From an uncultured Verrucomicrobiae bacterium (GTDB taxonomy: Bacteria; Verrucomicrobiota; Verrucomicrobiia; Limisphaerales; JAFGQR01), in the NCBI GenBank assembly GCA_963788655.1, contig CAWBHS010000008.1:1-64000 (forward strand): a DNA stretch of 64,000 nt, in the 5' to 3' direction. A program made the translations under genes and the position numbers. The notes below the pieces were generated by a model. That model worked only from the letters and a program-made list of their open reading frames with translations. It had not been told where the DNA came from and ran no database searches. Positions within the stretch are counted from its first letter, which is position 1; every line of letters begins with the position of its first letter. Positions 1 through 55,249 of the stretch are shown here, piece by piece.

Positions 1-3000
1 GGCTCGACTGCCAAAGCTTAGGGCATAGCTGGTTTGCGGCACGAACGATCCTAACAGGGACTCGGCTACAGTCGCTCCATTGACCAGCAAACGCGTGGAG
101 CCAGAGGCTTTGTCGTAGGTCACCGCCACGTGCTGCCAAATCCCAGTCGTCACCACGCCCGCCGCAGAGTAGATTACGTGATAACGTCCGGCTTGGTCCA
201 CGAGATTGGCCAAAAGGGATCCTGGACCATACCACGGATGCCCGACCCACAGATGGACCCCAAACGCCGAACCAGACCATTGGTCCCATTCGACAATCGC
301 GTGGCCATCGGCCACGTCGGTTGGATTGATCCATGCTTCCACGGTCATGCCTATCCGCAAGGCCAACATCCAACGAGGGCGAGGCCGGCACATGCACAAA
401 ACCATTTTCTCCATCCAACGAAAAGGCTTCGCCGACTTCGCCGGCTCCGTAGGTGGCATTGCCCACCAATTCGGCCACATTGGTGCCCTGGAGATCAGCG
501 CCCGAACCATTCCCGGGCCACCAGCCCACCAAGCCGGCTGGCGGCACGGCGCAACCGGAAACCGCTTCGACCGTCAGCGTGGCCGCCTCGCTAGTCGCCG
601 TTCCATAGGCATTGCTGACTTCCACTCGGTATTCGCCCCCATCGGCCATCTGCACATTGGCCAGGGTGAGGGTGGCGGTCGTCGCCTGAGCCCAACTGTT
701 GGTCATCGTGCCACCACTGGTAACGAGAGGTGCGGACCCTCGCCTCCGCGCAAGCGTGACATTCTCTCCATCAAGACGGTCTGGCTTTCCGGTTGCCCAA
801 CTATGACTGGCGGTTCGGCGTCAAGCATTTCCCCGCGCCGCGAGCGGATAAATTGCATCCATTTCCACAGCGTTAGAGCCCGGTTGTAAACGCTGACTTC
901 GTCAACGGCTCCGACAAAACCGTAGCTGCCCGGCAACTGCGGCCCGATGACCAAAAATCAAAAACCTGGTCTGCGGCATGAACGACCCCAAGTTGGCCTC
1001 CGTCACCAACGCGCCGTTGACCTGCAACTTGCCGGCGCCGAGGCTCTTGTCGTAGGTCAACGCCACATGCTGCCAAATCCCGGCTTCACCGCGCCGCCCG
1101 CGGATTCCACTACGTGCCATAGTCCGTTGGTGTCCGCAATGTTGGCCAAAATCGATCCGTCTGGCCGGGTTGGATGCCTGATCCACAGAGCGGCTCCAAA
1201 CGCACAACCAGTCATCGGACTCCATTCGACGATCGCGTGGCCGTGGGCGATATCCGCCGGATTAATCCATGTCTCAATGGTCATTCCTTCGCCCAGGCCA
1301 ACATCCAGACTGGGGGCGGCCGGCACCCGCACAAGGCCTTTGGTCCGTCCAAATAAAAGCCGCGGCCCACTTCGCCCGTTACTAAGCGGCGCCGCCCACC
1401 AACTCGCCCGTATTGTCCCCCAGCGCGTCGGCCGCATTATCTTCGCCCCGCCACCAGCCCACCAAGCCGGCCGGCGGGACGGTGCAACCGGAAACCGCTT
1501 CGACCGTCAGCGTGGCCGCCTCGCTGGTCGCCGTTCCATAGGCATTGCTGACTTCCACCCGGTATTGGCCCCCGTCGGCCATCTGCACATTGGCCAGGGT
1601 GAGGGTGGCGGATGTCGCCTCAGCCAACTGTTGGTCATCGTGCCACCACTGGTAGCTCAAGGGTCGGTCCCCGTGGCTTCCACGGCAAAGGTCACTTCCT
1701 TCCGCGGGCACGCTCTGGCTCTGCGGTTGGGCGACAATGACTGGCGGTTCGCCTTCAAAGCACTTGCCCGCGCTGCTGGCGGATAGATTGCTTCAATTTC
1801 GGCACGGCTCAGTGCCCGGTTGTAAAGGCTGACTTCGTCGAATGATCCAACATAACGGGTAGCTGCCTTGAAGCCGAGGCTCGACTGCAAAAGTCACATA
1901 GCTGGTTTGCGGGATGAAGATCCTAAGAGGGACTCCGCCACCAGCGCTCCATTGACCATGCGAACTTGCGTGGAGCCAGAGGCTCTTGTCGTAGGTCACC
2001 GCCACGTGCTGCCAAATCCCGGTCGCACCACGCCAGCTCGGAATAGATCACGTGCCATAGCCCCGGCTTGGTCCACGAGATTGGCCAAAAGCAATCCCTG
2101 GACCATACCACGGATGCCCGACCCACAGATGCGGACCCCAAACGCGAACTCAGACCATTGGTCTCCATTCGACAATCGCGTGGCCATGGGCCACGTCCGG
2201 TTGGATTGATCCATGTTTCGATGGTGACATGCCTTCAGCAAGGCCAACATCCAACGAGGCGAGGCCGGAACATGCACAAAGCCATTGTCCATCCAAGGAA
2301 AGGCGCGACCGACTTCGCCGGCCACCGTAAGTGGCCCGCCAATCCAGCGTGCCCAGATTGGTGCCCTGGAGATCAGTCGCTTTGAACCTTCGCCGGGCCA
2401 CCAGCCCACCAAGCCGGCCGGCGGAACGGCGCAACCGGAAACCGCTTCGACCGTCAGCGTGGCCACCTCGCTGGTCGCCGCCCATAGGCATTGCTGACTT
2501 CCACCCGGTATCCGCCCTGGTCGGGCAACTGCACATTGGCTAGCTGAGGTGGCGGTCGTGGCATCGCCCAACTGTTGGTCATTGTGCCACCATTGATAAC
2601 TCAGCGGCTTCCGCCCGGTAGCTTCCACCGCAAAGGTCACGTTGCCTCCCACTGCCACGCTCTGGCTTTGGGGTTGGGCGACAATTGCGGCGGTTCGCCT
2701 TCGGAGCATTTGCCCGCACTGCTGGCGGCATAGATTGCTTCAATTTGCGCACCGCTTAGCGCCCGGTTGTAAAGGCTCACTTCGTCAATGGCTCCAGCAT
2801 AGGGGTAGCTGCCTGGCAACCGCAGCCCGATGACCAAGTCAAAACTGGTCTGCGGGGTGAAGGTGCCCAAGTCGGCCTCCGTCACCAGCGCGCCATTGAT
2901 ATATAACTTGCCGGCACCGCTGCTCTTGTCGTAGGTCAAGGCCACATGCTGCCAAACGCCTGCTTGCACGGCTCCGCCTTCGGTTTCCACCAAGTGCCAC

Positions 3001-5450
3001 ATCCCGTGGGTGTCCGCAATGTTGGCCAGAAGCAATCCGTCTGGCCGGGTTGGATGGCTTATCCACAACGCCGCGCCCAACGCACCTCCGGTCAGCGGAC
3101 TCCATTCGACGATGGAGTGTCCGTGGGCGGTGTCCGCGGGATTAATCCAAGTCTCGATGGTGAAGCCCTCGCCCTGGCCAACGTCCAGACTGGCCGCGGC
3201 CGGAATGCGCACATGGCCGTTGGTGCCGTCCAGTTGGAAGGCGCGACCCACCTCGCCCGCAACATAACTGGCGCCGCCGTCCAGCGTGCCCGGATTGCTC
3301 CCCAACGCGTCGGCCGCATTGTCTTCGCCCCGCCACCAGCCCACCAAGCCGGCCGGCGGGACGGTGCAACCGGAAACCGCCTCGACCGTTAGCGTGGCCG
3401 CCTCGCTGGTTGCTGTTCCATAGGCATTGCTGACTTCCACCCGGTAATGGCCCCCGTCGGCCATCTGCACATTGGCCAGGGTGAGGGTGGCGGACGTCGC
3501 CTCAGCCAACTGTTGGTCATTGTGCCACCACTGGTAGGCTCAGCGGTTCGGTGCCCGTGGCTTCCACCGCAAAGGTCACGTTGCCTCCCGTCGGCACGCT
3601 CTGGCTCTGCGGTTGGACGACAATTTGACGGCGGTTCGCCTTCAGAGCATTTGCCCGCGCTGCTGGCGGCATAGATTGCTTCAATTTGCGCACGGCTTAG
3701 CGCCCGGTTGTAAACGCTGACTTCGTCGATGGATCCAACAAAAGCGTAGCTATTGCCTTGAGTCGAGGCCCGACTGACCAAAGTTAGGTCAAAGCTGGTT
3801 TGCGGCACGAAGATCCTAACAGGGACTCGGCTACAGTCGCGCCATTGACCATACAACTGCGCGGAGCCAGAGGCTCTTGTCGTAGGTCAAGGCCACGTGC
3901 TGCCAAATCCCGGTCGTCACCACGCCAGCCGCAGAATAGATTACGTGATAACGCCCCGCTTGGTCCACGAGATTGGCCATAAGGGCTCCCTGGACCATAC
4001 CACGGATGGCCCGACCCACAGAGCGACCCCAAACGCCGAACCAGACCATTGGTCCCATTCGACAATCCCGTGGCCATCGGCCACGTCGGTCGGATTGATC
4101 CATGCTTCGATGGTCATGCCATCCGCAAGGCCAACATCCAAAGAGGGCGAGGCCGGCACATGCACAAAGCCACTTCCCTCATCCAACGAAAAGGCTTCGC
4201 CAACTTTGCCGGCACCGTAAGTCGCATTGCCCACCAATTCAGCTACGTTGGTGCCCTGGAGATCAGCGCCCGAACCATTCCCGGGCCACCAGCCCACCAA
4301 GCCGGCTGGCGGCACGGCGCAACCGGAAACTGCTTCGACCGTCAGCGTGGCCACCTCGCTGGTCGTCGTTCCATAGGCATTGCTGACTTCCACCCGGTAA
4401 TCACCCGCATTGGCTAACTGCACATTGGCCAGCGTGAGGGTGGCGGTCGTGGCATCGCCCAACTGTTGGTCATCGTGCCACCACTGGTAACTGAGTGGTT
4501 CGGTCCCCGTCGCCTCCACAGCCAGCGTGACATTCTCGCCGGCAAGCACGCTCTGGCTCTGCGGTTGGGCGACAATGACTGGCGGTTCGCCTTCAATGCA
4601 TTTGCCCGCGCTGCTGGCGGCATAGATTGCTTCAATTTCCACACCGCTTAGCGCCCGGTTGTAAAGGCTCACTTCGTCAACGGCTCCGGCATAAGCGTAG
4701 CTGCCCGGCAACCGCAGCCCGATGACCAAGTCAAAACTGGTCTGCGGGGTGAAGGTGCCCAAGTTGGCCTCCGTCACCAGCGCGCCATTGACATACAACT
4801 TGCCGGCGCCGCTGCTCTTGTCGTAGGTCAAGGCCACATGCTGCCAGACGCCTGCTTGCACGGCTCCGCCTTCGGTTTCCACCAAGTGCCATAGCCCGTG
4901 GGTGTCCGCAATGTTGGCCAGAAGCAATCCGTCTGGCCGGGTTGGATGGCTTATCCACAACGCCGCGCCCAACGCACCTCCAGTCAGCGGACTCCATTCG
5001 ACGATTGAGTGTCCGTGGGCGGTATCCGCTGGATTAATCCAAGTCTCAATGGTGAAGCCCTCGCCCTGGCCAACGTCCAGACTGGGGGCGGACGGGATCC
5101 GCACGTGGCCGTTGGTGCCGTCCAGTTGGAAGGCGCGGCCCACCTCGCCGGCAACATAACTGGCGCCGCCGTCCAACGTGCCCGGATTGTCCCCCAGCGC
5201 GTCGGCCGCATTATCTTCGCCCCGCCACCAGCCCACCAAGCCGGCCGGCGGCACCGGTACAACCGGAAACCGCTTCGACCGTCAGCGTGGCCGCCTCGCT
5301 GGTCGCCGTTCCATAGGCATTACTGACTTCCACCCGGTATTGGCCCCCGTCGGCCATCTGCACCTCGGCCAGTGTGAGGGTGGCGGACGTCGCCTCAGCC
5401 AACTGTTGGTCATCGTGCCACCACTGGTAGGTCAGCGGTTCGGTGCCTGT
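1..5450 (-). repeat. Intragenic tandem repeat: alternating A/B Ig-LamG units, about 935 bp per unit and about 1.87 kb per AB pair
   Basis: The A marker 'cgtcggccgcatt.tcttcgccccgccaccagccc' occurs near 1426, 3308 and 5200. The B marker 'tggtgccctggagatcag' occurs near 481, 2358 and 4249. Confidence 0.9.
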
Positions 5451-7560
5451 TGCCTCCACGTGGAAAATGGCGTTGGAGCCCACAAGCACGCTCTGGCTTT
5501 GGGGTTGTACGACAATTTTGGGCGGTTCCACCCCCACGCCCATTTGCACCACCCGCACCGCCAGCTTCAAGCCCGTCTGTAGGCTTCCGTCGGTTCCACG
5601 CCCAATCGCCCAGTCCAACGTGTCGCCACTGGACAAGCTTAGTTGGTTGGTGTAACCGGTGCCTTCGTTAGGCCCCAGGTACTGCCCGAACAGTTCCTGT
5701 CCGTTGAGGACTAAATGAAAGTCACAGTCCGCCGACAATTCGCCATCGAACAAGGGCAAGGCCACCGTTTCCACCCGGTACTCTCCGCTGGCTGGCGACG
5801 TAAACCGCACCACCCCAAAGTTGCGGTCGGTTCCCACCGATCCGGGTGCAAAATAGACCGTACCTTCCGGCCCGACAAACGCTCCACCCTTCGACACCGC
5901 GGTCCCCGGACCCTTCACGCGGTTCACCACCGGCCCGGTAGCCGCGTTATACTGCCAGGCGGCAATGGGCACTCCGTTATCCGCGTGAAAAGTGCTGGAG
6001 TATTCCAAGAGGTGCAACGTGCTGTCCAAACCAACTTCCCAGCCGTAGCTCCAGACCCCGTTGGGATTGGACGCCAAGGAATGGTCCGCGGAAAGATCAA
6101 ATACGTGAGGCACCGGGGTTACGGTCAACGTGGCCACGCTGCTGGTCACGGAGCCATCGGCGTTGCTCACTTCAACCCAATATTCACCTGCTTGGGCCGG
6201 TTCCACTTGAGGCAGTTCCAAAACCGGACCGGTGGCTTCAGCCAGCGCGTCTCCGTTAAACAGCCATTGGTAGGTCAATGGGGCGAGTGCCCGTTGCCAC
6301 GACGCGGAAGACGGCGTTGGTGCCCGCAAGCACGCTCTGGCTCTGGGGTTGGAAAACGATTATTGGTGGTTCACCAGACGTTTCATGCGGCAGGTAGTAG
6401 TCGTTTGAGTCGGTAAAGTGCGGATAAATCGAGCCGCCAAACAACAACATCCCTTCGCCAGTCCAAATTCCCGCATCCGGCCGCCAGAACTGCCGGGCCA
6501 CGGGCGCATTGGTTTGCGTCATGGCAGACCAAAAATCGCCATCGGGATTGTATCGCCCCCCAGTGTTAAACGCGCCGTATGGAAACGAATTGCCCCCGCC
6601 CCAAACGAGCATTTCCTCTCCCGTCCACACAGCCGCGTGAAAAAAACGTTCCTGCGGCGCGCCGTTGGTCGCCAGGGGCAGCCAGGTATCCGTGTGCGGG
6701 TCATAACGTCCCCCGGTATTCAGACTATGTTCACTCGGCAGAATTGCCCCGCCCCAGACAATCATTTCCGTGCCGGTCCAGACTGATGTGTGCCGGGCGC
6801 GCGATTCGGGCGCATCCGCAGTGCTCAGGGGCGTCCAAGTATCGGTAGCCGGATTGTAACGGGCGCCGTCACCGACGGAAATCCAGGGAGTGCCTATCCG
6901 GGCCCCGCCCCAGACAATCATTTCCGTGCCGGTCCAGATTGCGGTGGTTTCGAAGCGGGCGCTCGGCGCATTGTTACTGGCCATGGGTGACCAAGTATCA
7001 GTCGTGGGCTGGTAGCGGTAGCCATCGGCTAAAACGACGCTGCCGTCCGCCAAGCCGCCCCAGACCAGCATTTCCGAACCGGTCCAGACCGCGACCGCCT
7101 CGGATCGCGGAGACGGTGCGCCATTGGTGGACATGGCGTGCCAGGTATCCGTTGCCGGATCATAGAGTGCCCCGGTGTTGACATCGTCGCGTGAGTTAAA
7201 ATTGGAGCGCCCGCCCCACACGATCATCTTGTGGCCAGTCCACACCGCTGATTGAAACCAGCGGGCTGTAGGAGCATTTTCCAGTGAAGTCGCCACCCAA
7301 GTGTCGGTGGCCAAATTGTAGCGGCCACCACTGCGGAAAAAGGCGCCCTCGCCGCCGCCACCCCAGGCGATCATCTCGGTGCCGGTCCAGACGACAGAAT
7401 GGCCGACGCGGGCGGTGATGCCGCGCGCCTTGGCCTGCCACAGGTCAGTGGCAGCGTGTGAGAGCAGGGGAGTGAAACAAAGCCAGGCAGCAACCAGGCT
7501 GACCACAGGTGTAAAAACACGAATCGTGCAAGAAGGTCTGCATTCCGTCAATTTCTTCAT
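1..7560 (-). CDS. Giant secreted surface protein: signal peptide, Kelch beta-propeller, Ig domains and tandem Ig + LamG (ConA-like) repeats; split by frameshifts; 3' end beyond window start
   Basis: ORF 6256-7560 has a signal peptide and six 'VWTG.EM..WGG' Kelch repeats. It continues by frameshift into 5211-6329, 3941-5254, 2637-3509 and further fragments. These carry Ig motifs ('QPQSQSV...YQW...ATLTL..VQ..D.G.Y.VEVSN') and LamG motifs ('GLVGWW.G...TIE.WINP...WQHVALTYD...Y.NG...IDEVSLYNRALS'). RBS GAGGA lies upstream of the start. Confidence 0.85.
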
Positions 7561-7603
7561 ATATTTGTCCTCAATAGCGAAATACTCGGCAAACTGTGCC
7601 GCA

Positions 7604-7632
7604 ACAATGACGAGCTAGTGAATTAAAGTCAA
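7604..7632 (-). promoter_or_regulatory. Putative sigma70 promoter for the giant Kelch/LamG gene
   Basis: Minus strand TTGACT-N17-CATTGT, about 45 nt upstream of the ATG at 7560, in an AT-rich tract. Confidence 0.35.
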
Positions 7633-7999
7633 GAAATATTTTTGCTCTGGGCATGACTGATTTGAATGTGGTTCCAGAACAATTTGACGTCAGAGGATTC
7701 CTTGAATCCTCAAATTGCCGCAAGAAATGTAAAACGAGGCAAAAAGAACCGTTATGCGGGTTCTTGTTTTCTTGGCGGCCATTCATCAAGAGGTCGATTT
7801 GCTTTAACCACCAGCGGGACAGAAGGGACGCACCGAGGGTGATGGGGAACCAGCCAAGAACTAAACGTTTTTGGTGGTCACGTCCTGGAAGTATCCTTGG
7901 GGTCGTTCACAGAGAGGAAACGAAGCCAACGAAGGCTGAATCGCCAATGGGTTCTTATTCCATGTTGCGTGCAAGTTGAGACTATGGCGGAAGCGGATT

Positions 8000-8068
8000 G
8001 GAGCGCGGACATTCCGGTCCGCTCGGCGGGGATTGCGTTGCCCGAGCGGACCGGAATGTCCGCGCTCC
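8000..8068. repeat. REP-like inverted pair (GGAGCGCGGACATTCC type)
   Basis: Perfect 27-bp inverted repeat at 8000-8026 and 8042-8068 with a 15-nt spacer. Confidence 0.85.
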
Positions 8069-8387
8069 GATTGAAGTCTCAGTTTGAATGGGAACTGGAG
8101 TTACCAGCATTTGCCGGCCTGAGTTGCTCTCATCGGTTCGGTAACCGTCGAACCTGTTCGCAAGCTGCGAGGAACGTGTTTGCCCACGGCTTGGCCCAAC
8201 CGCAGGGGGTTCGGACGGCTCCATTTCACCGCCAAGACCCGAAGCGCGCAAAGCATGTGGCTGAGTATCTAGGCGGTGAACTGGAGCCGGCCAAACTCTT
8301 GACGATTTGCGCTGATCAGGATCGTGGGAGCGCGTCGAAGGCTGCTCACGTTGACACCCAATTCAAGAGGGCATAGGTTCGCCGATA

Positions 8388-11300
8388 ATGAACACGATAC
8401 CAACGCAACGCTCCAGTTCGAAGGTCGCGTCCATTTCGAAGATTCGCGTCAGTCGCCAAAACATGGCTCTGGTCTTCCGCCGCGTGGGGACGATCGCATG
8501 CCGGTGCATGATCGGGGGATTGGTGCTGGGAATATTGACGCTGCTTCAAGCGCAAGCCGCGCCGCTCACCCTGCAACCGGTCGGAAATCAAGGTTTCGAT
8601 GTGTACGCCAACGGCGTGCTCATGGCGCCGATTCGGCTGGCGGCGGGTGGGGCGATCGTGGCCGACCGCGTCGAGTCGAGTGCCACCAACATTCACCTTT
8701 CGGGATTGCGCACGGTTGATCCGCTCGCAGTCACTTTTGCCGCTGACGACTATGTGAGCATCACCCTGCCGGCGGCGGACGATACGAACGGAGACCCGGT
8801 GGTTCAGTTTCACCTGACCGTGCAGCAGTTCGACACGAATCGCTGGCTGGCGATGTTTCCCGACGGGCCCGCGCCGTTCCATTTTCTGGTCTGTTCGATG
8901 CCCACGGCCGCCGTGTGGCATCAGCGAGGTTGGCTCAATGCCACGCCGTATGCCGATCCCTTCCCGCTCCTGCAAGATGTTCACGTGGGATCGCCGGAAA
9001 TCTCCTGCCTGTGGAATCGGAACTGGAGTTACCTCTGTCCGCTGGGCGCGCATCCCATCCCGATGATCGGTCTTTGGGATCCGCCGGCGCAATTATACGC
9101 GGGCTATGACTTTCAAGGCGCGCGGGCGACGGATCAATCCGCGCGTTACCTCGCCACGGCGTATTGCTGGCAACAGGGTACGCTTACCAATTTCATCACG
9201 TTGGCCTATCCCTACGGCGGGACGCGCTACGGCCAACAAGTGTATCCGCAAGGCGGGGAAGTGCTGGCGTCGTGGTTTCACCTGATCCTTGATCCCAACC
9301 TGCCCGCCACGGAGGATCCCAATGAGCGTTTCCAGGAGCGGTTGTTTGCCCGCTATGCCGACGACCTTCCGCCCGTGCCGGCGATGAACGATGTTGGGTG
9401 GATACCCGGCCAGCGGCATTTGAGCGATTTCGCCGGACCCATTGGCGTGAATTTATACGGGACCGGTGGCGAAACGACGTTCTATCCAGCCGGCACGGTG
9501 CTCTTGAATGGCTGGCGGGGACACCTCGAGATGCCCATCGACACCGCCGCCCGCAAAGGCGACCTCGTCACCATCAATGTTGCGCGCAGCCGTATCGAAT
9601 CGTTGCTGACCAACGATGCGGTGACCTTCACCGTTGAGGGCGACGCGTGTTTGTTCTGGCAAAAGCCGCTGTCGGGCGCGTGGTGGCCGGACTGGGGCGG
9701 CAGTGATGTCACCACGCTCCACAACACGGAAGGTTGGTATGCGGCGCGCGTACTGGTGGAACTCTATCGCTACGACCGCGCCCACGGACAGGCCACACCC
9801 GAGTATCTGACCGCCCTTGATGGGCTGTTCAATTGGGCGCGGCACTTTGTGTGGACGCGTAATGAATTTGCCGATGTTCCGTCGTCGCCGTTTGCCATCG
9901 GCGGCACGCTGAGCACGGCGTTCTTGTTGGACTACTATTTCACCTTCAAAAACGATGTCCAACGGGCGACCAATGCGACGTTGGCGCTTCATCTGGCCAA
10001 CAACGTGATCTGGCGTTACCTCGAAGTGTGGGCCATGGATTCGGACCGGGCCGACGGTGCGCTGGACAGCGCATTCCTGTTGGAACCGAACAGCGGACGC
10101 GACTGGGCCGGTCTGGCCTGCGCCAACGAAGTGGCCTGGACGCTCGACTCGCTGGTGCAGGTTTATGTGCATTCCGGCGACCCGCGATTGCGCTATTACC
10201 TGCGCGGGATTTTGCAGCGTTGGCCGGCGCTGTACCGGGACCACTACGCGGATTCCATTGCCGACTACGGCAGCAGCGATGTGACCGAAGGCTTGGGCCT
10301 GTTTGATGGTTCGGGTCCCGGACGCGGCAATCGTTACGCGTATGGTTTTGCCGAAACGATGCCCTTGATTGATCCGGTCGGCAATTCCACCATGCGCGTC
10401 GTAGCCGGTGATCAGGCCTGCATCGCGTTTGACCGGTTCAATCAGAGCACCGACGTGACCGACTACCGCACGGCCGGCGACGGCGCCTGTTCCTTCCGTA
10501 TTGTTTCCGAGCTCCCGGGCCCGTTTGATGTCAGTTTTTCCTACCCGTTTGTGAACGTCTCCGGTCTGCCGGTCACGCGCGTGCGCAACGGCACGACGAA
10601 TCTGCTGCTGATCGGCCAGGTCACGCGACCGGCGCAAGCGCCCAGTTCCCTGTACCTGCCGCAATTGCAGAATGGCGACGTGATTACCATCGGCACGGTG
10701 CCGGCGGGAACGTCCACCAACGAATTCGATGGGTCACGGGTCTATAACGAGACCAACGTGCCACCGATCACCAATGGGTTATTCATCACGGTGCCGTTGA
10801 ATGGAGCTTATTCGCTGCCCCAGGATTGGCATGACCTGCACTCCTTTGCCGGCATCATCCCTGGGCTGCGCTGGAACTACCGCGTGCCCTATCAGCAAGG
10901 GCTGCGCGCCGTCACGAACCCCCAACCCGTCGCGGCACCCGAGGCGACTGTAGTGCTGGTGGCTTACTCGCCGCCGGCTTCGCAAACACTGACCGAGGCG
11001 CCCGCGCTGATCCTCGACGATGACTCGCGGTTGGCGTTGAGCGGGCATCCCGTGCTGGGATGGCGCGCCTGGCCAATCATCTTCGACCGAATGGTCTTGC
11101 TGGATTACGTCGAGGTGCCCGGTGGACGTTCACTCAAAGCGGTCGATCCGCAGGGCACCTTGGTGATGGGATTGACGGCCTTCACCGGCACGGCCACAGA
11201 TTGGCAACCGTTCCAGACGACCTTGGACAATGCTTCCGCCTCCTTTGTACAAACGGAGAGCGAGCGGCTCCGGGTGTTGGCGTTGCGATCCAGCTTTGCC

Positions 11301-47263: not shown

Positions 47264-48796
47264 TCAATCTTCGACCAAGGTAATATCCTCCTCCGGCTTC
47301 GGATAATTCTTTTTCGCGATATACGACTTGGTGTCGTCCACCATCTCCTGGGTGATCTGAAAATTATATTTCCGATAATCGTTCACCGTGAATTCTCCCA
47401 CTTTGAAGAATCCCCACTGGTCAAAAAAGTCGGTCAGATCCAGCTTGGCCACATCGCAACAGATCTTAACGAACTCAAACTGGTTTCGAATGGAATCATC
47501 CCCGCGACCGGCGTCCGGGCGGCTGCGCATTTCCTCCATCACGTCGGCATAAAAGTCCGGCTTGCCGTGTCGTGCAAAATAAAGGTGGAGTTGCCAGAAG
47601 GGAACCAGGCGGTCGAAGACGTCCTTCCATTCCAGGTAAGAGATCTTCGGAGTTGCTTCGATGATGTTTTTGCGCGCTGACGCATAATTCTTCTGCGCGG
47701 CGAGGCGGCTCGGATTGCCCATCCCGGTGACGGTAAACATCGAGAAAATGTTGCAGCTCACCTCGGTCATGCCGCCCCAGGTCATTTTCGGGCGCATTTG
47801 CAGCACGTGACCGGTTTCGTGACTGAAGCCCCAGCAGGGATCGCCTTTGATGACGACTTCCGGATCAGCGACCATGCGCATGGTGCCCTGGTTGCCGAGG
47901 TAGGCCACCCCGTCGCCGTCGCGGAACATGTAGTAATTGAAATTGACGCGCGCCAGAATGCGGTTTTTGGGCACCTTGTGGTATTTCACCAATCCCATCA
48001 GCGTGTAATGGCTGTGAAGCAGTTTGTCGTAATTGCCGATCAATTCCGTCCCCTTGCCACGGGTGTAAACGTTGAACCACTCCACCGGGTAGGCGACCTG
48101 GATATGCTTGCCGCGTGCGTCCATGATGGGACTCACCGCCTGGTCCAGCAGTCGGTCCCAATCGGCGTTCGTCTGCTTGGTGGCATCGAAGTAGCCATTC
48201 ACTTTGCCCGTGGGAAAGTGAACGACCACCTGCGGCGCCGTCTCGGCACGGTCGTCGAAATAGCTCAGGTACACATTGCCGCCCTTTTCCACTTGAATCA
48301 CATTCACCCCCTCGGTCAGCGCGATCCGCTGTTTCTTCAGTCCCCATCCATTCGGATCTTTTGAGGGATTGACGCCTGCGGGCGGCTGGCGCATCCAGTC
48401 GGGAATCAGTAGCGAAAGTTCCTTACCCCCGGTAGGTCCGACCAACACCACTAGTTCGCCCGGCTCCAGGCAGATGCCGGTGATGTTCTCGTAACGGCTG
48501 AAGCCATCGCCCAGCTTCAACGTGTTCCCCAATTCGCGAGGCGAAGGATAGGCTGCATAACTGGCCGCTCGGTAGGTTCGGTCATACGTGCCGTTCAGCA
48601 TCTCGGCCGCCACCCTTTTGAGCAACGCGCTTTGAAAGTTATCCAAATCTTTCAACTGCACGTTCGGCTTCAACTGCCGGCAACTGGTGTCGGTAAAGAA
48701 CGTCATGTCGGCTTTGAGCGCAGCGAGGTTGATTGCGGCGCTACCGGAAATTAATGGCCATGACAATAAGGCGACAGCCAGGACGAATTTGTTCAT
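47264..48796 (-). CDS. Secreted M60-like (enhancin/mucinase family) zinc metallopeptidase
   Basis: Signal peptide, 'ENITGI', gluzincin 'WGFSHETGH...WGGMTEVSCN', 'LVPFWQL' and 'DLTDFFDQWG'. Confidence 0.9.
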   Translation of the reverse strand: MNKFVLAVALLSWPLISGSAAINLAALKADMTFFTDTSCRQLKPNVQLKDLDNFQSALLKRVAAEMLNGTYDRTYRAASYAAYPSPRELGNTLKLGDGFSRYENITGICLEPGELVVLVGPTGGKELSLLIPDWMRQPPAGVNPSKDPNGWGLKKQRIALTEGVNVIQVEKGGNVYLSYFDDRAETAPQVVVHFPTGKVNGYFDATKQTNADWDRLLDQAVSPIMDARGKHIQVAYPVEWFNVYTRGKGTELIGNYDKLLHSHYTLMGLVKYHKVPKNRILARVNFNYYMFRDGDGVAYLGNQGTMRMVADPEVVIKGDPCWGFSHETGHVLQMRPKMTWGGMTEVSCNIFSMFTVTGMGNPSRLAAQKNYASARKNIIEATPKISYLEWKDVFDRLVPFWQLHLYFARHGKPDFYADVMEEMRSRPDAGRGDDSIRNQFEFVKICCDVAKLDLTDFFDQWGFFKVGEFTVNDYRKYNFQITQEMVDDTKSYIAKKNYPKPEEDITLVED

Positions 48797-48958: not shown

Positions 48959-50284
48959 ATGAACAATGACCATGCAACCAGACTCACACGACGTCAGTTT
49001 CTCACCCGGGGGGCGATGGCGGCAAGTGCCGTAGCGATGCCCTGTTTGATCCCGGCCTCGGCATTGGGCCGAAACGGTACGGTGGCGCCGAGCGAACGGA
49101 TTGTGATGGGCGGCATTGGACTCGGTGGTCGTGGTTCCTACGATTTGGGCTGGATCTTGACCCAGAAGGATGTGCAGTGGGTCGCTGCCTGTGACGTCGT
49201 GAAAGGCCGGCGCGATGCGGCCAAGAACGTCGTCGATACGAAATACGGCAACCAAGATTGTGCCGTGTATGGCGACATGCGCCAGTTCCTGGACGAGCGG
49301 ACGGACGTGGACGCCGTGTTGATTGCCACGGGGGACCGCTGGCATGCGCTGGCTTCGATTTGGGCGATGCGGGCGGGCAAGGATGTTTATTGCGAGAAAC
49401 CGGCCTGTCTGACGATGGCGCAGGGGCAAATGGTTGTCGAGACCGCACGCCGGTATGGGCGGATTTATCAAACGGGCGCCCAGCGCCTCAGCGAGCCGCA
49501 TCATGTGTTTGCCATTGAAATGGCCCGCTCCGGCCGGTTGGGCCCCATTGATACGGTTTACGCCGACTGTCGTTGGCGCGACGGGATGCGCCACGACTGG
49601 TTGCCCGCCGAACCGGAACCTCCCAAGGATCAACTGGACTGGGATCTGTTCGTCGGCCCTTCTCCCTGGCGGCCCTACAACCACGGTTACCTGAACTCCG
49701 GGTGGTATCACTTTTATGATTTCGCCACCGACGTGGCGATGTGGGGTGCGCACACGGTTACCCAAGCCCTGGCTGGACTCGACATGGACAACGTATCCTC
49801 CATCGAATTCGAGTATGCCGGGCCGGGGGCAACGATGGTGACCCGTTTGTCCAACGGGGTGAAGTTGGTTCTGTTCCGGGTCAGCGGCTCGGTTTGGGAG
49901 CCGTGCGAGTATTGGCATGGCGCGTGTGGCGAGCGGTTCGATGGTCCCAAAGGCTGGACCGCCGCCGCCGACGGTTATGCGCGCACCGACGTCTCCTCGC
50001 CTGCGCTGTTGCGCGATTATCAGAACGTGCTGGCGGAATATACGACGCGCACCCAGCGCCCATTGAACCACATGCGGGATTTCTTTGACTGCATCCGGTC
50101 GCGTCGGCTCACCGTGGCGAGTCCCGAAGTGATGTATCGGTCCATGAAAATTTGTTTGGCGGCCGATATATGCGAGCAATTGCAGCGCAACCTGAAGTTC
50201 GACCTGCGCGCGGCTGAATTTGTCGGAGATCCCGAAGCCAACCGGTTGCGTTTTCGCGCGATGCGCGCCCCCTACACAATCTGA
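48959..50284 (+). CDS. Tat-exported Gfo/Idh/MocA family oxidoreductase
   Basis: 'TRRQFL', 'GIGLGGRG', 'IATGDRWH', 'DVYCEKP' and 'WDLFVGP'. Confidence 0.92.
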   Translation: MNNDHATRLTRRQFLTRGAMAASAVAMPCLIPASALGRNGTVAPSERIVMGGIGLGGRGSYDLGWILTQKDVQWVAACDVVKGRRDAAKNVVDTKYGNQDCAVYGDMRQFLDERTDVDAVLIATGDRWHALASIWAMRAGKDVYCEKPACLTMAQGQMVVETARRYGRIYQTGAQRLSEPHHVFAIEMARSGRLGPIDTVYADCRWRDGMRHDWLPAEPEPPKDQLDWDLFVGPSPWRPYNHGYLNSGWYHFYDFATDVAMWGAHTVTQALAGLDMDNVSSIEFEYAGPGATMVTRLSNGVKLVLFRVSGSVWEPCEYWHGACGERFDGPKGWTAAADGYARTDVSSPALLRDYQNVLAEYTTRTQRPLNHMRDFFDCIRSRRLTVASPEVMYRSMKICLAADICEQLQRNLKFDLRAAEFVGDPEANRLRFRAMRAPYTI

Positions 50285-51052
50285 TTGGGCAATTTGAGGT
50301 AACAGTTCGCCGATCACGACGCAAAGCAAGCCGCGTCGAAAAGGGATCATTGCCCTCCAGATGTAACGGCACCGCGCATTTGTGCGGAATGAGAGTTCTT
50401 GAACTCGGACTGAAACGCCTCGGGTGTCGTCAGGAGTTTCATACTCAATCCATCACTTTTCCAGTTCCTGTTCGACCGCGGAGAATTCTTCGAGAGCTTC
50501 TTCAAGATCTTCGACGATTTCGGCGGCGAGGATGGCGGGTTTGGGGAGGTTTTCCGTGTCGGCCAGCGTGTCGTCTTTGAGCCAGAAGATGTCGAGGTTG
50601 GCTTTGTCGCGGGCCATCAGGTCGGCGTAGGTGAAACGATTGAAGCGTTCGGATTCCTCGCGTTTCTTCGTGCGATTCTTGGTCTGGTAGAACTGGACGA
50701 ACTCTTTCAAGTCTTCGTCGGCGATGGGGTTTTGGCGCAGTGTGAAGTTGCGATTCGTGCGCAGGTCATAGACCCAAAGCTCTTTGGTCCAAGGCGTCTT
50801 GGAGGCGGGCTTCTTGTCGAAGAAGAGCACGTTGGCTTTCACGCCGGGCGAATACCAGATGCCGGTGGGCAGACGCAGCAGAGTGTGGACGTTGCAGCGA
50901 TCCAGCAAGGCGCGGCGATTGTTGTACAGCAGCGAATAGATCCGTGGAGGAAAGAGCGCAGTAAATTGTGGAGCAACGGGCCAAATGAGCGCATTGCACC
51001 GTGGGGCAAGAGGCGCGCTCGAAGCGTGTGAACGTATCGAGTAGTATGGTGG

Positions 51053-51083
51053 ACCGTCTCCCGGATTCGGACCGGGAGACGGT
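51053..51083. other. Perfect hairpin inside the downstream end of the transposon
   Basis: ACCGTCTCCCGG-ATTCGGA-CCGGGAGACGGT, a 12-bp stem. Confidence 0.7.
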
Positions 51084-51126
51084 AAGAGGTTGGCCCGTGG
51101 CGACGAGAACGGGATCGGCCGTGGGC

Positions 51127-51516
51127 TTACCTTCCGTGCTCGGCGCGAAACTGGGTCAGGATCTGCAGCGCGCGTTGACGCGCCGCCGCCTCTTCTTGAG
51201 GATCGGCCGGCGGGACCGAACGGGGCTCAGGATTGGAGCCGGAGGGCTTGGGGGCGTAGAGCGCAACGCGGCTGATGTTGAGATCGTCTTCGAAACGGTC
51301 GGGCTGGAGGAGATTGTAGAGCTTGAGGGCTCCGACGTTCCTGCGTCCCTCGCGGATTTCCCGCTGCAGATAGCGGACGACTCGTTGGAGATCGGCTTCG
51401 GTGAACCCCGCACGGAAGAAGTCATACCAAAGCCGTTCCCGATCAAAGCGCAGGCTGACGCGCTGGCCCGTCAGACGGCCATAGAGCGCGTGAACTTGTT
51501 GGATGCGCGCGATCAT
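51127..51516 (-). CDS. Transposon ORF4, 129 aa; resembles phage replisome-organizer C-terminal / DnaD-like helical domain
   Basis: ATGA overlap with the ATPase stop (51513-51516). Sequence 'LYGRLTG...GFTEADLQRVV...LKLYNLLQPDRFEDDLN'. The family call is by eye only. Confidence 0.7.
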   Translation of the reverse strand: MIARIQQVHALYGRLTGQRVSLRFDRERLWYDFFRAGFTEADLQRVVRYLQREIREGRRNVGALKLYNLLQPDRFEDDLNISRVALYAPKPSGSNPEPRSVPPADPQEEAAARQRALQILTQFRAEHGR

Positions 51517-52346
51517 GAGCTGTGTCGCGTTAACCCCGCCAACCCGGGCACCTGTTCCATCGCCTGCTGCATCGTGGGGGCGCTGATTTCCCGGAGGTCG
51601 GCCCGAGCGGCTTCGATCCACGCCGCCCGAGCCAAGAGGCAGACGCTGCGCGGCACGCCCGCGGTGGCCCGGACCAGCAAATCCACCGCCGCCGCTTCAA
51701 AAACCTGCGAGCGATTAATGCCGACGGCTTCCAGCCCGGTTCGCAGATAGGTTTGGATCTCCTCGAGCGTCCATGGACTGAGCAGGTGATGAGCGCTCAA
51801 GCGGGAACAGAGCGCCCGGTGATTGCGCAGTTGGAGCTGTCCCAGCAGGTACTCGTCCCCGAGGAGGACCAGCGCGAAGGTCGGTTGGCTGGGCAGGTTG
51901 AGCCCGAGCAACAACCGCAACTCTTCGAGCGTGCCGTGGGTCGCGTTCTGCGCGTCGTCCATGACAATGACCAGGGTCTGGCGCTCATGTTCGGACAGGT
52001 AGCTGGAGAGTTCATCCAGATTGCGCTCGCGGCGGATGCTGGCCCGCTTGCCCAGGCTGCGAGCCAGACTGGCTAAGAGCCCACTGCTGCTCAAGGTGGC
52101 CTGGGTCAGGTTGACCGGAGTATAGAGTCGGTTCTCCAGTTGGCGCACCCAGCGGCCGACCAAGGTGGACTTGCCCGTCCCATTGCCTCCGCTTAAAAGC
52201 ATCGCGCCGCGCAAGGCGGCCGTCTGCTCGAGGAGACTCCAGGCGCGTTGCTGGGAGGGGATGGCAATCCAGTGCGGGTCCGATAACGGCCCGAAGGGCA
52301 CGGCGGTGGCACCCCAGGTCCGCGCATAGCGATCCAATTCATTCAT
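51513..52346 (-). CDS. Transposon AAA+ ATPase (ExeA/MuB/TnsC-like)
   Basis: Start MNELD overlaps the transposase stop (ATGA). Walker A GGNGTGKS, Walker B VIVMDDAQ, 'ALCSRL' and 'GVPRSV'. Confidence 0.9.
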   Translation of the reverse strand: MNELDRYARTWGATAVPFGPLSDPHWIAIPSQQRAWSLLEQTAALRGAMLLSGGNGTGKSTLVGRWVRQLENRLYTPVNLTQATLSSSGLLASLARSLGKRASIRRERNLDELSSYLSEHERQTLVIVMDDAQNATHGTLEELRLLLGLNLPSQPTFALVLLGDEYLLGQLQLRNHRALCSRLSAHHLLSPWTLEEIQTYLRTGLEAVGINRSQVFEAAAVDLLVRATAGVPRSVCLLARAAWIEAARADLREISAPTMQQAMEQVPGLAGLTRHSS

Positions 52347-53605
52347 CGCTTGCCCTCCCCGCCATCGATTTGGCTGTTGAGGTGGCGGTCGACTTTGCGG
52401 GCGGCTCCAAAGTCCTGTCCTTTGTAGCGGACCAGGATCGGGTTCTTGACCCAAGGATCGAGCTCCAAGTGCACTTTGAGCCCGCGCAGGGCCAGGTTCA
52501 CCTCGTAGAGATCGTTGTCGATGCGGACGGTCCCGTCTTTGCGCACCACGCGCTCGATGCGGGTGTAGAACAGCCGGTCCAGGTCCAGCTGCGGATCCAA
52601 CGGCCGCAGCAGTGGCAGCGCCCGGGCGAAGCGCTCCTGGGGACTTTCGCCGATGCTCGAGTGAGGACGGGGATGGTAGATCTCCTGGAGCCACTGGGCG
52701 AGCTTGCCGTTAAGTTCCGCCAAGGATCCGACGGCTTGGCCGGGCAAACGCAAGCCGGCTTCGAAATCCTCCTGCACGGTGCGGAACAACCGCTCCACTT
52801 TCCCGCGACTCCAAGGCCGGCCCACTTTGGAGTGAATGAGCCGGATGCCCAGATTGGCGCACACGATGCGCAGATGGTGATTGACGAAGGGACCGCCGTT
52901 GTCCGCATAAAGTTTTCTCGGCAATCCCCGGCGACGAAGCGCCGCTTTGAGGCAGCGCAAGAGCGCCGGCGTGTCGGCGGCCAACCCGTAGGCCGCATGC
53001 GGAATCAGGCGCGAGTGATCATCGACGATGAGGCAGAGGTGGGTGGGCACCGTCTTGGGGTGCAGGGCCAAAAAGGGGCCCGGGGAGAAGTCGACGATCC
53101 AAAGGTCATTGACGCCGGGTGCTTCAAAGGCCTTGGTGGGACCCGGGATGTTCTGGCGCAGCAGATAGCGGCGGCCCTGCGCGTCGAGGTCATTCTGCTC
53201 CAGCCAGCGATAGACGGCCGAGAGCGCCGGCAGCGTGGGGTCGGATTGTTTCCATTGCCGGTAAAGCAGCTTGACCGGCACTCCCGGAAAGCAACGCACC
53301 TGATCGATGACCCACTGCTGTTGAGTGGCCGATAATCGCCGGGGTTTGCCCCGGTCGGATCGTGGTTTGGGCTTGAGTCCTTCGAAGCCGGCTTTCTTGA
53401 ACGCGTAATACCAGTCTTCGAGCGTGCGCCGAGCGACAAATTGAGGGGGTGCCTCACTGTCCCCGGGCAAGGGATGAGTAGAGCTCACCTGTTCCAGCGC
53501 CGCGGAAAGAGGCCAGTGGTGCTGAAGGAGCTCGAGGACGGCTTGAACCAGGCTCATACGCCGCAAGGCGACGGCCTCCTGAACGGATGCAGTTGTGTTT
53601 TTCAT
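52343..53605 (-). CDS. DDE transposase (rve core, N-terminal HTH, Mu-transposase-like C-terminus)
   Basis: 'RRTLEDW...GFEGLKPKPRSDRG', 'WIVDFS', 'VDDHSR', 'LYADNG', 'GKVERLFRT' and 'RVVRKDGTV'. Confidence 0.95.
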   Translation of the reverse strand: MKNTTASVQEAVALRRMSLVQAVLELLQHHWPLSAALEQVSSTHPLPGDSEAPPQFVARRTLEDWYYAFKKAGFEGLKPKPRSDRGKPRRLSATQQQWVIDQVRCFPGVPVKLLYRQWKQSDPTLPALSAVYRWLEQNDLDAQGRRYLLRQNIPGPTKAFEAPGVNDLWIVDFSPGPFLALHPKTVPTHLCLIVDDHSRLIPHAAYGLAADTPALLRCLKAALRRRGLPRKLYADNGGPFVNHHLRIVCANLGIRLIHSKVGRPWSRGKVERLFRTVQEDFEAGLRLPGQAVGSLAELNGKLAQWLQEIYHPRPHSSIGESPQERFARALPLLRPLDPQLDLDRLFYTRIERVVRKDGTVRIDNDLYEVNLALRGLKVHLELDPWVKNPILVRYKGQDFGAARKVDRHLNSQIDGGEGKR

Positions 53606-53692
53606 GCGGCGCGGAGCCTTTCACGCCGCCGGCTTGGATTTCAAAAACAGGGTTTCGTGGGATTAATAACCTGTTGCGCTCCAACCGATAAT

Positions 53693-54172
53693 TCAGGATG
53701 ACGGTCGCAGACAGCGGTAGTTGCCCAAGAGCGAAATGTGGTGGTGTTCGGAAAGAAAGCAGAGCATCTTTGGCACCGAGTCAAATGACTGTCGCAAGCT
53801 GGCCCACAACGAGAGGCCGTCGGAAACCGTGCTACTAACCAGTTGTCCGAAGACTTCTTTGAGGGTGGCCGCGCGTGCCGTCAACGCACTCCACGCTCGT
53901 CGGAGGCAACCCGCCTCTAAGGCGCGGGGCGGTGGGTCCAGGCCTTGGGTCTGGATCCTCGCCCGTTGGTCAAAATCCCCTTGCAACCGCTCGGCACGGA
54001 TCGAGCGATACGGTAATCGATGCGGCGGCAGGACCGAGAAAGTCCGGCCGCAAGCAGGATGCAGATAGCGCTGGATCCTCTCCTTGAGCGTGCCCTCCGG
54101 ATCGGCATTCCGCCAATAGCATCCATGGCGGTGAACCATCCCCGGGCCACCGCAGGGACAGGACGGCCGCAT
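53693..54172 (-). CDS. Transposon ORF1, Cys/His zinc-finger protein (DUF6431-like)
   Basis: 'CPC...HRHGCYWR...RYLHPACGRTFSVLP..LPYR'. It is the first ORF inside the element end. Confidence 0.7.
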   Translation of the reverse strand: MRPSCPCGGPGMVHRHGCYWRNADPEGTLKERIQRYLHPACGRTFSVLPPHRLPYRSIRAERLQGDFDQRARIQTQGLDPPPRALEAGCLRRAWSALTARAATLKEVFGQLVSSTVSDGLSLWASLRQSFDSVPKMLCFLSEHHHISLLGNYRCLRPSS

Positions 54173-55249
54173 TCCCTTGAGTTGATCTTCGCGGAATTGG
54201 ATCGGGGAGCTTTTCCGAAATCACCACGGCGAATCAAGCTGCTTTCTTTCGGGCTCCACGATGCGAGCGCCCCAGCTTTCCTCATCAACGTTCCGCACCC
54301 ACGCTCACACCATTTTTCGCAGCGCTACAGGATTTTCTCGCCTGCGCCGGCCTCGAACAGAACATTGTCCGGCACGACCACGGCGGCTGTGCCGGTTTCC
54401 TTGAGCATGGAATAGACGTTCTGCACGAAGTTGAGCTGCTTGTTGCTCGTCGTCGGCGCAATGAAGTCCTGGCGCTCGTAATAGATCTTCTCCGTCTCCC
54501 GCTTCCCAGCGTCGTTCACGACCGTGATGCTGCTCTTTTTTCCAAAAGGCGGATTCGTGAGCACCATGTCCACTGGCTCGGGCCTCTTTGCGAGGGTGTC
54601 CATTGTCTGCACGATGGTCTTGTCGCTGCCGCCCATGCCGTGCAGGTAAAGGTTCATCGCACACAGACGTGTGACGCCCGGCACGATGTCCATGCCACGG
54701 ATGGCTTCCTCGTTGATGAAGCGCTGGGCTTTGCGATCCAAGTCGCGGGAGTTCGTCGTCACAGATATTCGTATGCGGCGAGCAGGAAGCCACCCGTGCC
54801 GCAGGCGGGATCGGCGATGCGCATGGTCGGTTCGGGGCGCATGACTTGCACGATGGCGCGGATGATGGGGCGCGGCGTGAAGTATTGGCCCGCGCCGCCG
54901 CGCACGTCCTCGGCGTTACGCGCGAGCAGGCCCTCGTAAATCTCGCCCTTCACGTCCATGTCCAGCCCGGCCCAGTTCTCCGACTCCATCAAGGAGATGA
55001 GTCGTTCCAGCTTGGCGGGGTCGGTGATCTTGTTCTGCGCCTTGGCGAAGATGATGCCGAGCAGACCGGGCAGCTTACCCAGCTCGCGCAGCGTCTTGGA
55101 ATACTGCACCTCCAACGGGTCGCCCGACTCCTGCTTGAGCGCGGCCCAGTTGTATTTCTTGGGAATGACATTCTCCAGGCCGAGCAACTCGCGCTCGTGG
55201 GCCATTTTGAGGAAGAGCAGAAACGTGATCTGCTCGGTGTAACCGCACT

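Follow-up and report, generated by a model that had tools for sequence, protein, structure and literature searches.

For DDE transposons that are copied as they move, the hand-over of branched intermediates to replication has, to our knowledge, been worked out for Mu alone, where host factors carry it out. The portions of PMC3334882 and PMC3325207 available to us describe replicative transposition of Mu passing to host restart proteins, and elements of the IS481 type are thought to copy and paste (PMC6794481, sections consulted). Here we analyse a 64,000-nucleotide stretch of contig CAWBHS010000008.1 from an uncultured Verrucomicrobiae bacterium (the window, meaning this whole stretch) and find that positions 50923-54329 hold one copy of an autonomous, insertion sequence (IS)-like family of transposons with a DDE transposase and an AAA+ ATPase. 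The last of its four open reading frames (ORFs), ORF4, is a core member of the operon and not cargo, and comparisons of profiles and predicted folds support its core as a remote homologue, at the superfamily level, of Phg_2220_C (PF09524), a C-terminal domain of phage replication initiators. Whereas host factors serve the switch to replication in Mu (PMC3334882, same portion), a replication-initiator-type domain is here encoded by the element itself. An element with a module of this type would offer a compact and testable system for replication hand-over, in hosts (Verrucomicrobiota, Planctomycetota and others) whose restart and helicase-loading pathways are poorly known, and a first functional context for Phg_2220_C outside initiator proteins.

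The family is widespread, active and apparently undescribed. We use the last word because full-text searches of the literature yielded no description of the four-gene architecture (ISfinder itself was not compared) and because no ISfinder-derived NCBIfam model reaches its cutoff for the element. A first-pass annotation, made by a model from the DNA letters alone, had likewise not known the architecture as a described one, and in the literature searched that impression holds. Pairs annotated as 'exeA-int' or 'DDE-type integrase + ExeA family protein' appear in PMC13049778 and PMC9679502, and a preprint (10.1101/2021.08.16.456562) places a phage replisome-organizer homologue near putative Cas12a transposons; the parts of these three sources that we consulted do not describe the four-gene element. 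A term search of the main text of a Tn7 target-selector survey (PMC10293859), the part of that source covered, gave 0 occurrences of DnaD, replisome, ExeA, IS481 and Mu-like.

A DDE and AAA+ core among described families

The four genes listed in the first pass, for a zinc-finger protein, a DDE transposase, an AAA+ ATPase and a 129-aa protein, are all present on the minus strand (Table 1). ORF1 and ORF2 are separated by 87 bp, and the ATGA start/stop overlaps already pointed out there can be read in the sequence, joining ORF2 to ORF3 at 52343-52346 and ORF3 to ORF4 at 51513-51516 (our ORF3 searches used 51513-52349, that is, one additional N-terminal residue). Scanning one genome per species with 12 closer sequences, we recovered 80 loci, spread over 40 assemblies, that share the gene order and ends, a count that multi-copy genomes inflate; recurrence of this kind is therefore not chance. 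All 57 loci with enough DNA have an ORF1-like ORF upstream of ORF2, so that the four-gene layout is family-wide. The hidden Markov model used here, built from 12 ORF1-like ORFs of the same loci, also finds ORF1 in a clade where tblastn with the window's ORF1 gave nothing. ORF1 matches Pfam DUF6431 (PF20020) at E 0.065 (13.5 bits, under the 26.6 cutoff), and its nearest clusters by ESM features are DUF6431, at 0.96-0.97. Its AlphaFold2 (AF2) model, with a predicted local distance difference test score (pLDDT) of 89, has no significant fold match in the PDB, where NrdR is best at E 0.34 and TniQ is not among the matches.

ORF2 carries the Pfam domains HTH_32, rve and rve_3, and its tail matches Mu-transpos_C at 19.0 bits against a cutoff of 21.7. 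No variation at D172, D235 and E271 was seen among 20 sequences, and the last two stand 36 residues apart, DD(36)E. Among the IS-family models of NCBIfam, IS481 (NF033577) scores best, at 167.6 bits and E 4.2e-49, although its cutoff of 224 is not reached; IS21, IS3 and ISNCY models score far below it, the IS21 model NF033546 giving 65 bits against a cutoff of 160. With IS481 the element shares an rve-type core with short D-E spacing, TGT...ACA ends and a short symmetric target. For IS481 that target is NCTAGN in the portion of PMC6794481 available to us, where the closest homologue of ISRe46 is aligned over 333 residues. IS481 elements have one transposase of ~330 aa; here, in contrast, the genes number four, the transposase has 420 aa and a Mu-C-like tail, and target-site duplications (TSDs) measure 7 bp, at NNAWTNN.

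IS21 offers the same succession of a transposase gene and an overlapping AAA+ regulator gene, and IstA of the IS21-family element IS5376 is the best match of ORF2 to solved structures in a sequence search (1.3e-7). The differences are that the IS21 model stays under its cutoff, that two additional genes are present, and that the ATPase is AAA_22/ExeA/MuB-like and not IstB_IS21/DnaC-like. In Pfam, ORF3 matches AAA_22 (4e-15), AAA_16 and others, and IstB_IS21 (PF01695) is not among the 20 families at E<=1; in NCBIfam it matches the ExeA-type TIGR03015 (3e-30, under cutoff).

To Mu A and B the element is tied by phrog_310, the transposase family of transposable phages (ORF2, 6e-52), by phrog_296, 'DNA transposition protein' (ORF3, 7e-24), by the sole PDB sequence match of ORF3 (MuB 8xvb, E 0.002, residues 24-172), by the weak Mu-transpos_C tail and by ends of the TG...CA type. 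MuB prefers AT-leaning targets, and target choice here leans the same way, as expected of a MuB-like ATPase. Mu, however, has a 5-bp TSD and a larger transposase, whereas here the TSD is mostly 7 bp, the transposase is much smaller and the element is not a phage. The label 'Mu-like' given to this DNA earlier is therefore only approximate: the best (sub-cutoff) IS model, the TSD length and the D235-E271 spacing depart from it. Tn552, Tn5053/Tn402 and Tn7-like transposons also combine a DDE transposase and an AAA+ regulator with extra small proteins, one with a zinc ribbon; Tn552 makes TSDs of 6-7 bp, and TnsB is among the PDB sequence matches of ORF2 (3e-6). Unlike Tn7- and Tn5053-like elements, this one does not insert site-specifically and its ORF1 has no TniQ match; no TnsA-like nuclease, resolvase or TniQ family is among the Pfam and NCBIfam matches of the four ORFs.

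ORF1 to ORF3 have counterparts, arranged alike, in unnamed 'DUF6431 - DDE integrase - ATP-binding protein' modules (RefSeq annotation) carried by proteobacterial and Bacillota plasmids. In 77 plasmid records there are transposases with 31-35% identity to ORF2; we inspected three of these records. Pandoraea and Acidithiobacillus caldus plasmids carry genes for a zinc-ribbon/DUF6431 protein (the syntenic A. caldus counterpart of ORF1 is annotated DUF6431), a DDE protein and an ATP-binding protein, then a small ORF whose product (74 aa and 65 aa, respectively) has no detectable relation to ORF4. A Thermobacillus relative has zinc-ribbon, DDE and AAA+ genes and no fourth. Since the plasmid relatives have these three genes, the three-gene core is older and broader, and the Phg_2220_C-like gene is a fourth-position accessory of one large clade. 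The expectation that all four ORFs go together is thus borne out within the family, most elements of which have ORF4, and not among these distant relatives, with another fourth gene or none. Together, the comparisons suggest that whichever gene stands fourth in DUF6431-DDE-AAA+ elements occupies a swappable slot. On two proteobacterial plasmids a different small fourth gene overlaps the ATPase gene (L081 4600-4824 and L083 4589-4786); the two products have ...PF ends and a common L(T/S)DEAA stretch and are not significantly alike.

Position and kinship of ORF4

Of the 76 loci whose upstream DNA reaches 900 bp, 75 have ORF4 directly after ORF3, and in 44 of 65 ORF4 could start at a codon that overlaps the stop of ORF3 by 4 nt. 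On this evidence ORF4 is a core operon member and not cargo, as had been surmised from the ATGA overlaps alone. The sole exception to adjacency, L040, has a solo ORF4 homologue (5974-6381) without ORF1-3, probably left over from a truncated copy, next to a tyrosine-integrase-like ORF; the 448-kb contig is labelled Gammaproteobacteria. ORF4 is predicted to form five or six helices at its core (residues 1-85), followed by a linker of low confidence and, at 106-127, a C-terminal helix (AF2 model, pLDDT 88). Conservation lies in residues 1-85, with a nearly invariant GRRNxGALK segment. In a close clade of 8 loci, identity is 86% for ORF2, 88% for ORF3 and 73% for ORF4, the last value being lower because linker and tail vary. 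In a distant clade of 30 loci, mostly from two genomes, the values are 39.5%, 37.9% and 58.8%; that ORF4 outlasts ORF2 and ORF3 there fits constraint by a conserved partner. Homologues at E<=1e-3 comprise 620 representatives at 50% identity, and clustering at 90% identity defines a large family of unannotated proteins with 3010 clusters, many of them on contigs about as long as the element itself (3.3-3.9 kb). A Pfam domain was found in 0 of 120 listed clusters.

Several lines of comparison lead from this family to phage replication initiators. Foldseek searches of the predicted viral structures in BFVD with the ORF4 model revealed that 8 of the top 20 matches are named 'Phage conserved hypothetical protein C-terminal domain', other matches being replication proteins and one replisome organizer (best E 0.013, probabilities ~1.0, core root-mean-square deviation 2-3 Å over 76-84 columns). 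A BFVD match, orf60 of Tetrasphaera phage TJE1, carries PF09524 (4e-19). Aligned by hhalign with single sequences, the ORF4 profile reached E 0.016 for RSK1 ORF49 and E 0.1, in register with PF09524, for TJE1 orf60. These scores are too weak alone, and we therefore built an 11-sequence PF09524 template from the TJE1 orf60 domain and ten diverse segments of its phage relatives. The ORF4 family aligned with this template at E 1.8e-5 (prob 78%, 58 columns) and, with relaxed settings, collinearly over 99 columns at low mact. Among controls, the lowest E of 40 column shuffles was 0.021 (median 0.37), the reversed template gave 0.5 and the ATPase alignment 0.37. The relatives collected via the TJE1 orf60 domain place PF09524-bearing genes in 321 phage records, with replication initiation protein, replisome organizer, DnaD-like helicase loader and protein O as frequent annotations in 40 listed rows. 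ESM features put a PF09524 cluster at 0.93 for ORF4, and its sole PHROGs match is phrog_428, 'replication initiation protein', at E 0.082.

Longer relatives carry the same signal. Among 16 longer or chimeric ORF4 relatives scanned, six have full or partial initiator-type N-domains before an ORF4-like C-terminal domain: DUF1376 (P0215, 45 bits; P0237, sub-threshold), Phage_rep_org_N (P0263, 23.6 bits against a cutoff of 23.3) and HTH_36 with DnaD_N (P0262; P0228, sub-threshold). No family was found in seven of the 16. With Phg_2220_C initiators, ORF4 thus shares a collinear alignment, a predicted helical fold and, as its closest non-transposon relatives, C-terminal domains behind initiator-type N-domains. 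It differs in standing alone, without an origin-binding N-domain and within a transposon, in failing the Pfam model, and in having the family-specific GRRNxGALK where PF09524 proteins have W...YLRP. Another head before a PF09524-type tail, Rep_3, is described for lactococcal plasmids in the part of PMC4490491 available to us. Tblastn searches returned no match for ORF4 in phages and plasmids, none for P0263 in phages, and matches to the DUF1376 N-domain only for P0215 in phages.

In a quick tree of the ORF4 domain rooted at the midpoint, 22 transposon ORF4s group together with two other proteins, one fused and the other solo (SH-aLRT 92), and 8 of 13 fused forms fall in a separate group. The tree is compatible with a single capture of the domain and shows neither a single origin nor the direction of transfer. 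A second clade of short ORF4-like proteins (P0184-P0268, ~21 representatives, 35-45% identity, SH-aLRT 96) could be another transposon lineage or stand-alone. Three further proteins, P0166, P0171 and P0204, are chimeras of partial ORF4 with host-type domains (HSDR_N, methyltransferase and HAD hydrolase) and were probably produced by deletions or by reading through a junction; as in the window, DNA-modification or restriction domains are involved in two of the three cases, perhaps by coincidence. The ATPase and ORF4 are occasionally fused in frame, in single copies or single-member clusters (L056 5074-6378; P0273-P0276 and P0281); such fusions could reflect frameshift mutation at the ATGA overlap or could be functional.

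Two other candidate kinships are not supported. The likeness to DnaD put forward in the first pass is not significant: PDB 2i5u ranks only 14th by Foldseek (E 4.5, template modelling score 0.28/0.38), and there is no DnaB_2 match. Designed tetratricopeptide repeats are the sole PDB sequence matches of ORF4 and its profile, and we judged them a repeat artefact because each repeat has an independent E-value of at least 36 despite good summed E-values. No Phg_2220_C initiator domain is among the PDB matches found for ORF4.

Readings of ORF4 function

Our tentative proposal, to which we give somewhat less than an even chance, is that ORF4 links the transposition complex to the replication machinery; it draws on the kinship of ORF4, its coupling to ORF3 and its conservation. 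ORF2 and ORF3 would act like MuA/MuB or IstA/IstB, with the ATPase coating or deforming target DNA and activating strand transfer; insertion itself makes a staggered cut of 7 bp, at times 5 bp, at loosely AT-centred sites. ORF4, made in step with the ATPase, would retain a replication initiator's partner-recruiting module but not the N-domain that binds the origin. It would dock on the transpososome or ATPase complex and bring in the host helicase or its loader, and the branched strand-transfer (or copy-out) intermediate would then be replicated. Recruitment of a helicase or loader is the likeliest job of the tail because tails of the PF09524 type sit behind interchangeable DNA-binding heads, here Phage_rep_org_N, DUF1376 and HTH_36. 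A need for host replication of the intermediate is suggested by an IS481/Mu-like enzyme without second-strand nuclease or resolvase. Many identical copies per genome are indirect support for replicative transposition, and the sole one. A bolder version, which we regard as doubtful, is that a transposon-captured initiator tail, acting as a free-standing subunit, builds a replisome on the element's own strand-transfer intermediate and, as a transposon-encoded replisome organizer, makes copying independent of host restart pathways; if so, the interchangeable fourth gene of sister lineages would mark a slot for alternative host-coupling modules.

A number of results weigh against a link to replication. 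ORF4 is not a member of Pfam PF09524: neither PF09524 nor DnaB_2 (PF07261) matches it, with 0 of 52 family members reaching E<=1, and NCBIfam, including TIGR02220, gave no match. Of the resemblance to Phg_2220_C seen in the first pass, the remote homology stands, through hhalign, BFVD, ESM and the fused relatives, and Pfam membership does not. The BFVD E-values are all >0.001, the ESM match to PF09524 shares 124 features only and is a weak lead, and Foldseek against the PDB found no significant fold match (best E 1.6). The function of PF09524 is itself called unknown in the portion of PMC4490491 available to us. No result here shows contact of ORF4 with helicase, loader, PriA, SSB or clamp; intact TSDs fit cut-and-paste equally. 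Distant relatives lack the Phg_2220_C-like gene, and the core machine can therefore do without the domain. The inflated count of loci belongs on the same side.

Alternatively, ORF4 may serve the AAA+ ATPase as a subunit or adaptor and have nothing to do with replication, being a borrowed AAA+-binding module that controls ORF3 assembly, hand-over to the transposase, or target immunity. We consider this unlikely, although it accounts for several observations. Initiator C-domains in phage modules adjoin DnaC/IstB-like AAA+ loaders, and ORF4 is tightly coupled to ORF3 in translation (the 44 of 65 loci above). AAA_22-ORF4 fusions make up 5 of the 9 homologues found at 337 aa or longer, and the L056 fusion lies within an otherwise normal multi-copy family. 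Phage RSK1 adds a weak hint in the form of a 257-aa gene without a Pfam match, placed directly after the replication-protein gene that BFVD matched to ORF4. The ATPase of the element, however, is AAA_22/MuB-like and not of the IstB/DnaC kind (PF01695 is not among its matches), the fusions are mostly single-member clusters that may be frameshift mutants, and the slower divergence of ORF4 in the distant clade (58.8% identity against 37.9% for ORF3) would be odd if fast-evolving ORF3 were its sole partner. A complex prediction for ORF3 and ORF4 scored 0.00, without controls, and is evidence for neither side. Even if ORF4 were merely an ATPase adaptor, the element would still represent a new, abundant and active IS-like family missed by IS family models.

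Targeting is a further thought, since TnsE steers Tn7 via the clamp: ORF4 might be a selector that directs insertion to replication forks or lagging-strand templates. Its kinship to a replication-associated domain agrees with this, as does insertion into many unrelated genes at a loose NNAWTNN, which leaves no place for a sequence-specific selector. We nevertheless hold the idea improbable, with no orientation or strand bias shown, relatives without ORF4 keeping the same core genes, and no clamp-binding motif seen in ORF4 (none was tested for). Orientation relative to ORFs spanning the empty site came out at 9:9, and we discarded this comparison as uninformative, an antisense ORF having been picked for the window's hsdM.

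There is a similarly slim chance that ORF4 is a small DNA-binding accessory or regulator, like the small proteins encoded by ISs, that binds ends or branched DNA or represses the operon. A weak HTH_Tnp_1_2 match (E 0.13, residues 38-67, in 2 of 52 family members), the basic, nearly invariant GRRNxGALK motif and the subterminal repeats adjoining ORF4's end of the element point that way. Yet the match scores 12.9 bits, far under its 27.9 cutoff, and the zinc-ribbon protein ORF1 is a more obvious candidate. ORF4 is also highly conserved across phyla while element ends diverge (TGTAGCG, TGTTCCG, TGTGCCG), which argues against end-specific binding. Least probable is a passenger gene without part in transposition, such as a decoy against phage or plasmid replication initiators: the element does sit in a restriction-modification gene here and the ORF4 domain does come from phage-type initiators, but ORF4 always holds one position, overlapping ORF3, occurs in 75 of 76 loci across all clades and is accompanied by no other cargo.

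Ends, target sites and surroundings of the element

The first-pass annotation recognized a discrete DDE and AAA+ transposon that splits hsdM between GEKI and RRALL, which the N6_Mtase fragments and recurrent ends confirm, and placed its start at 50920, which we revise. In blastn of the region against the 80 related loci, similarity starts exactly at 54329 in 5 loci; at the other end it stops at 50923 in 7, runs 3-8 bp beyond in 3 and is cut by a contig end in 1. We set the limits at 50923-54329 because both this similarity and the aligned junctions of relatives stop there; the TGT at 50920-50922 is therefore flanking DNA. The element is 3407 bp long, on the minus strand, and has four genes without cargo; it occurs as a single copy within the window, with a GC content of 62.5% against ~58% in the flanks.

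Table 1. Coordinates of the genes, ends and flanking features of the element in the window
Feature	Coordinates	Strand	Remarks
ORF1	53693-54172	-	159 aa; DUF6431-like: N-terminal zinc ribbon and helical domain
ORF2	52343-53605	-	420 aa; DDE transposase: HTH_32, rve core, weak Mu-transpos_C-like C-terminal domain
ORF3	51513-52346	-	277 aa; AAA+ ATPase (AAA_22), ExeA/MuB type
ORF4	51127-51516	-	129 aa; stand-alone; start overlaps ORF3 stop (ATGA)
Terminal inverted repeat, ORF1 side	54313-54329	-	gene strand reads TGTAGCGCTGCGAAAAA; read directly
Terminal inverted repeat, ORF4 side	50923-50939	-	reverse complement reads TGTACAGCAGCGAATAG
Two subterminal direct repeats	50951-50981 and 50984-51014	.	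31 nt, 71% alike; just inside ORF4-side end
Target-site duplication copy	54330-54336	.	AAAATCC on gene strand; fits NNAWTNN
Decayed second target-duplication copy	50916-50922	.	ACAATCG on gene strand; 5/7 match
Interrupted hsdM-type methylase gene, 5' part	54330-55205	-	N6_Mtase profile positions 3-68 and 73-197
Interrupted hsdM-type methylase gene, 3' part	50453-50922	-	N6_Mtase profile positions 202-288

The ends read TGTA...TACA and form an imperfect inverted repeat, TGTAGCGCTGCGAA / TGTACAGCAGCGAA, whose two arms agree at 13 of 17 positions by hand comparison of the printed sequences. Junction alignments revealed that the TGTAGCGCTGCG start is kept in L001, L004, L007, L008, L011 and L012, that a TGTAGCG start occurs in relatives, and that relatives end in TGTACA. 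The ...GCTGTACA end is kept in 11 of 12 listed relatives that reach the ORF4-side end, L005 having GCGCTACA instead. The subterminal repeats are possible transposase-binding sites.

Most of the 80 loci come from Verrucomicrobiota/Limisphaerales metagenome-assembled genomes (MAGs). Some long contigs with loci bear the labels Gammaproteobacteria, delta proteobacterium and Acidobacteriota; among short contigs the labels include Planctomycetota, Nitrospinaceae and Polyangiales, though short repeat contigs may be misbinned. Elements measure 3.4-3.8 kb across the family. Two MAGs yielded 20 and 10 loci, respectively. Identity between copies of one genome is mostly 99-100% (96.6-96.8% for three CAVQND copies), and from this near-identity we conclude that the family is mobile now.

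Among 37 elements with both ends placed, 23 have an exact 7-bp TSD, 4 a 5-bp TSD and 10, including the window's own copy, none or an imperfect one. The target derived from 22 sites with 7-bp TSDs is NNAWTNN, with A at position 3 in 15/22, A/T at position 4 in 17/22 and T at position 5 in 17/22. At these sites GC content drops to 26% in the central 3 bp, compared with 59% in the flanks, an AT-richness equalled by 1 of 2000 random samples. Insertions are scattered over many unrelated places and genes and thus use no dedicated attachment site. TSD length varies within a genome (L025-L033, from one MAG, and L051): in one MAG, copies at least 99% identical have three 5-bp and two 7-bp duplications, a variable stagger that is unusual for a DDE transposase. 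Matching by eye among the copies without TSDs found no reciprocal TSDs. L045 holds two copies in the same orientation, 2976-6766 and 7221-9055, ~455 bp apart; target immunity, if it exists, is therefore not absolute. In L024 (2388/3241), L016 (1091/4599) and L043 (1380/4675) the transposase gene is itself interrupted by insertions of ~0.85 to 3.5 kb, presumably nested other mobile elements.

The methylase remnant is followed downstream by an M60 (enhancin-like) peptidase gene (47264-48796, -) and a GFO/IDH/MocA oxidoreductase gene (48959-50284, +), ordinary host genes with no relation to the element. The interrupted gene is recognized by three N6_Mtase (PF02384) fragments, covering profile positions 3-68 at 54759-55205, 73-197 at 54325-54762 and 202-288 at 50453-50908; the element thus interrupts it cleanly between profile positions 197 and 202. 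By our own reading, 50916-50922 differs from the GEKIRRALL coding sequence expected without the interruption by one substitution and one missing base, and the window's target duplication counts as decayed because the flanking heptamers agree at 5 of 7 positions only. The methylase gene is damaged a second time by a frame change near 54760, which falls between profile positions 68 and 73, and no hsdS or hsdR was found on the side examined, where the oxidoreductase and M60 peptidase genes lie. It looks like a decaying orphan remnant, a state that fits with the decayed target duplication.

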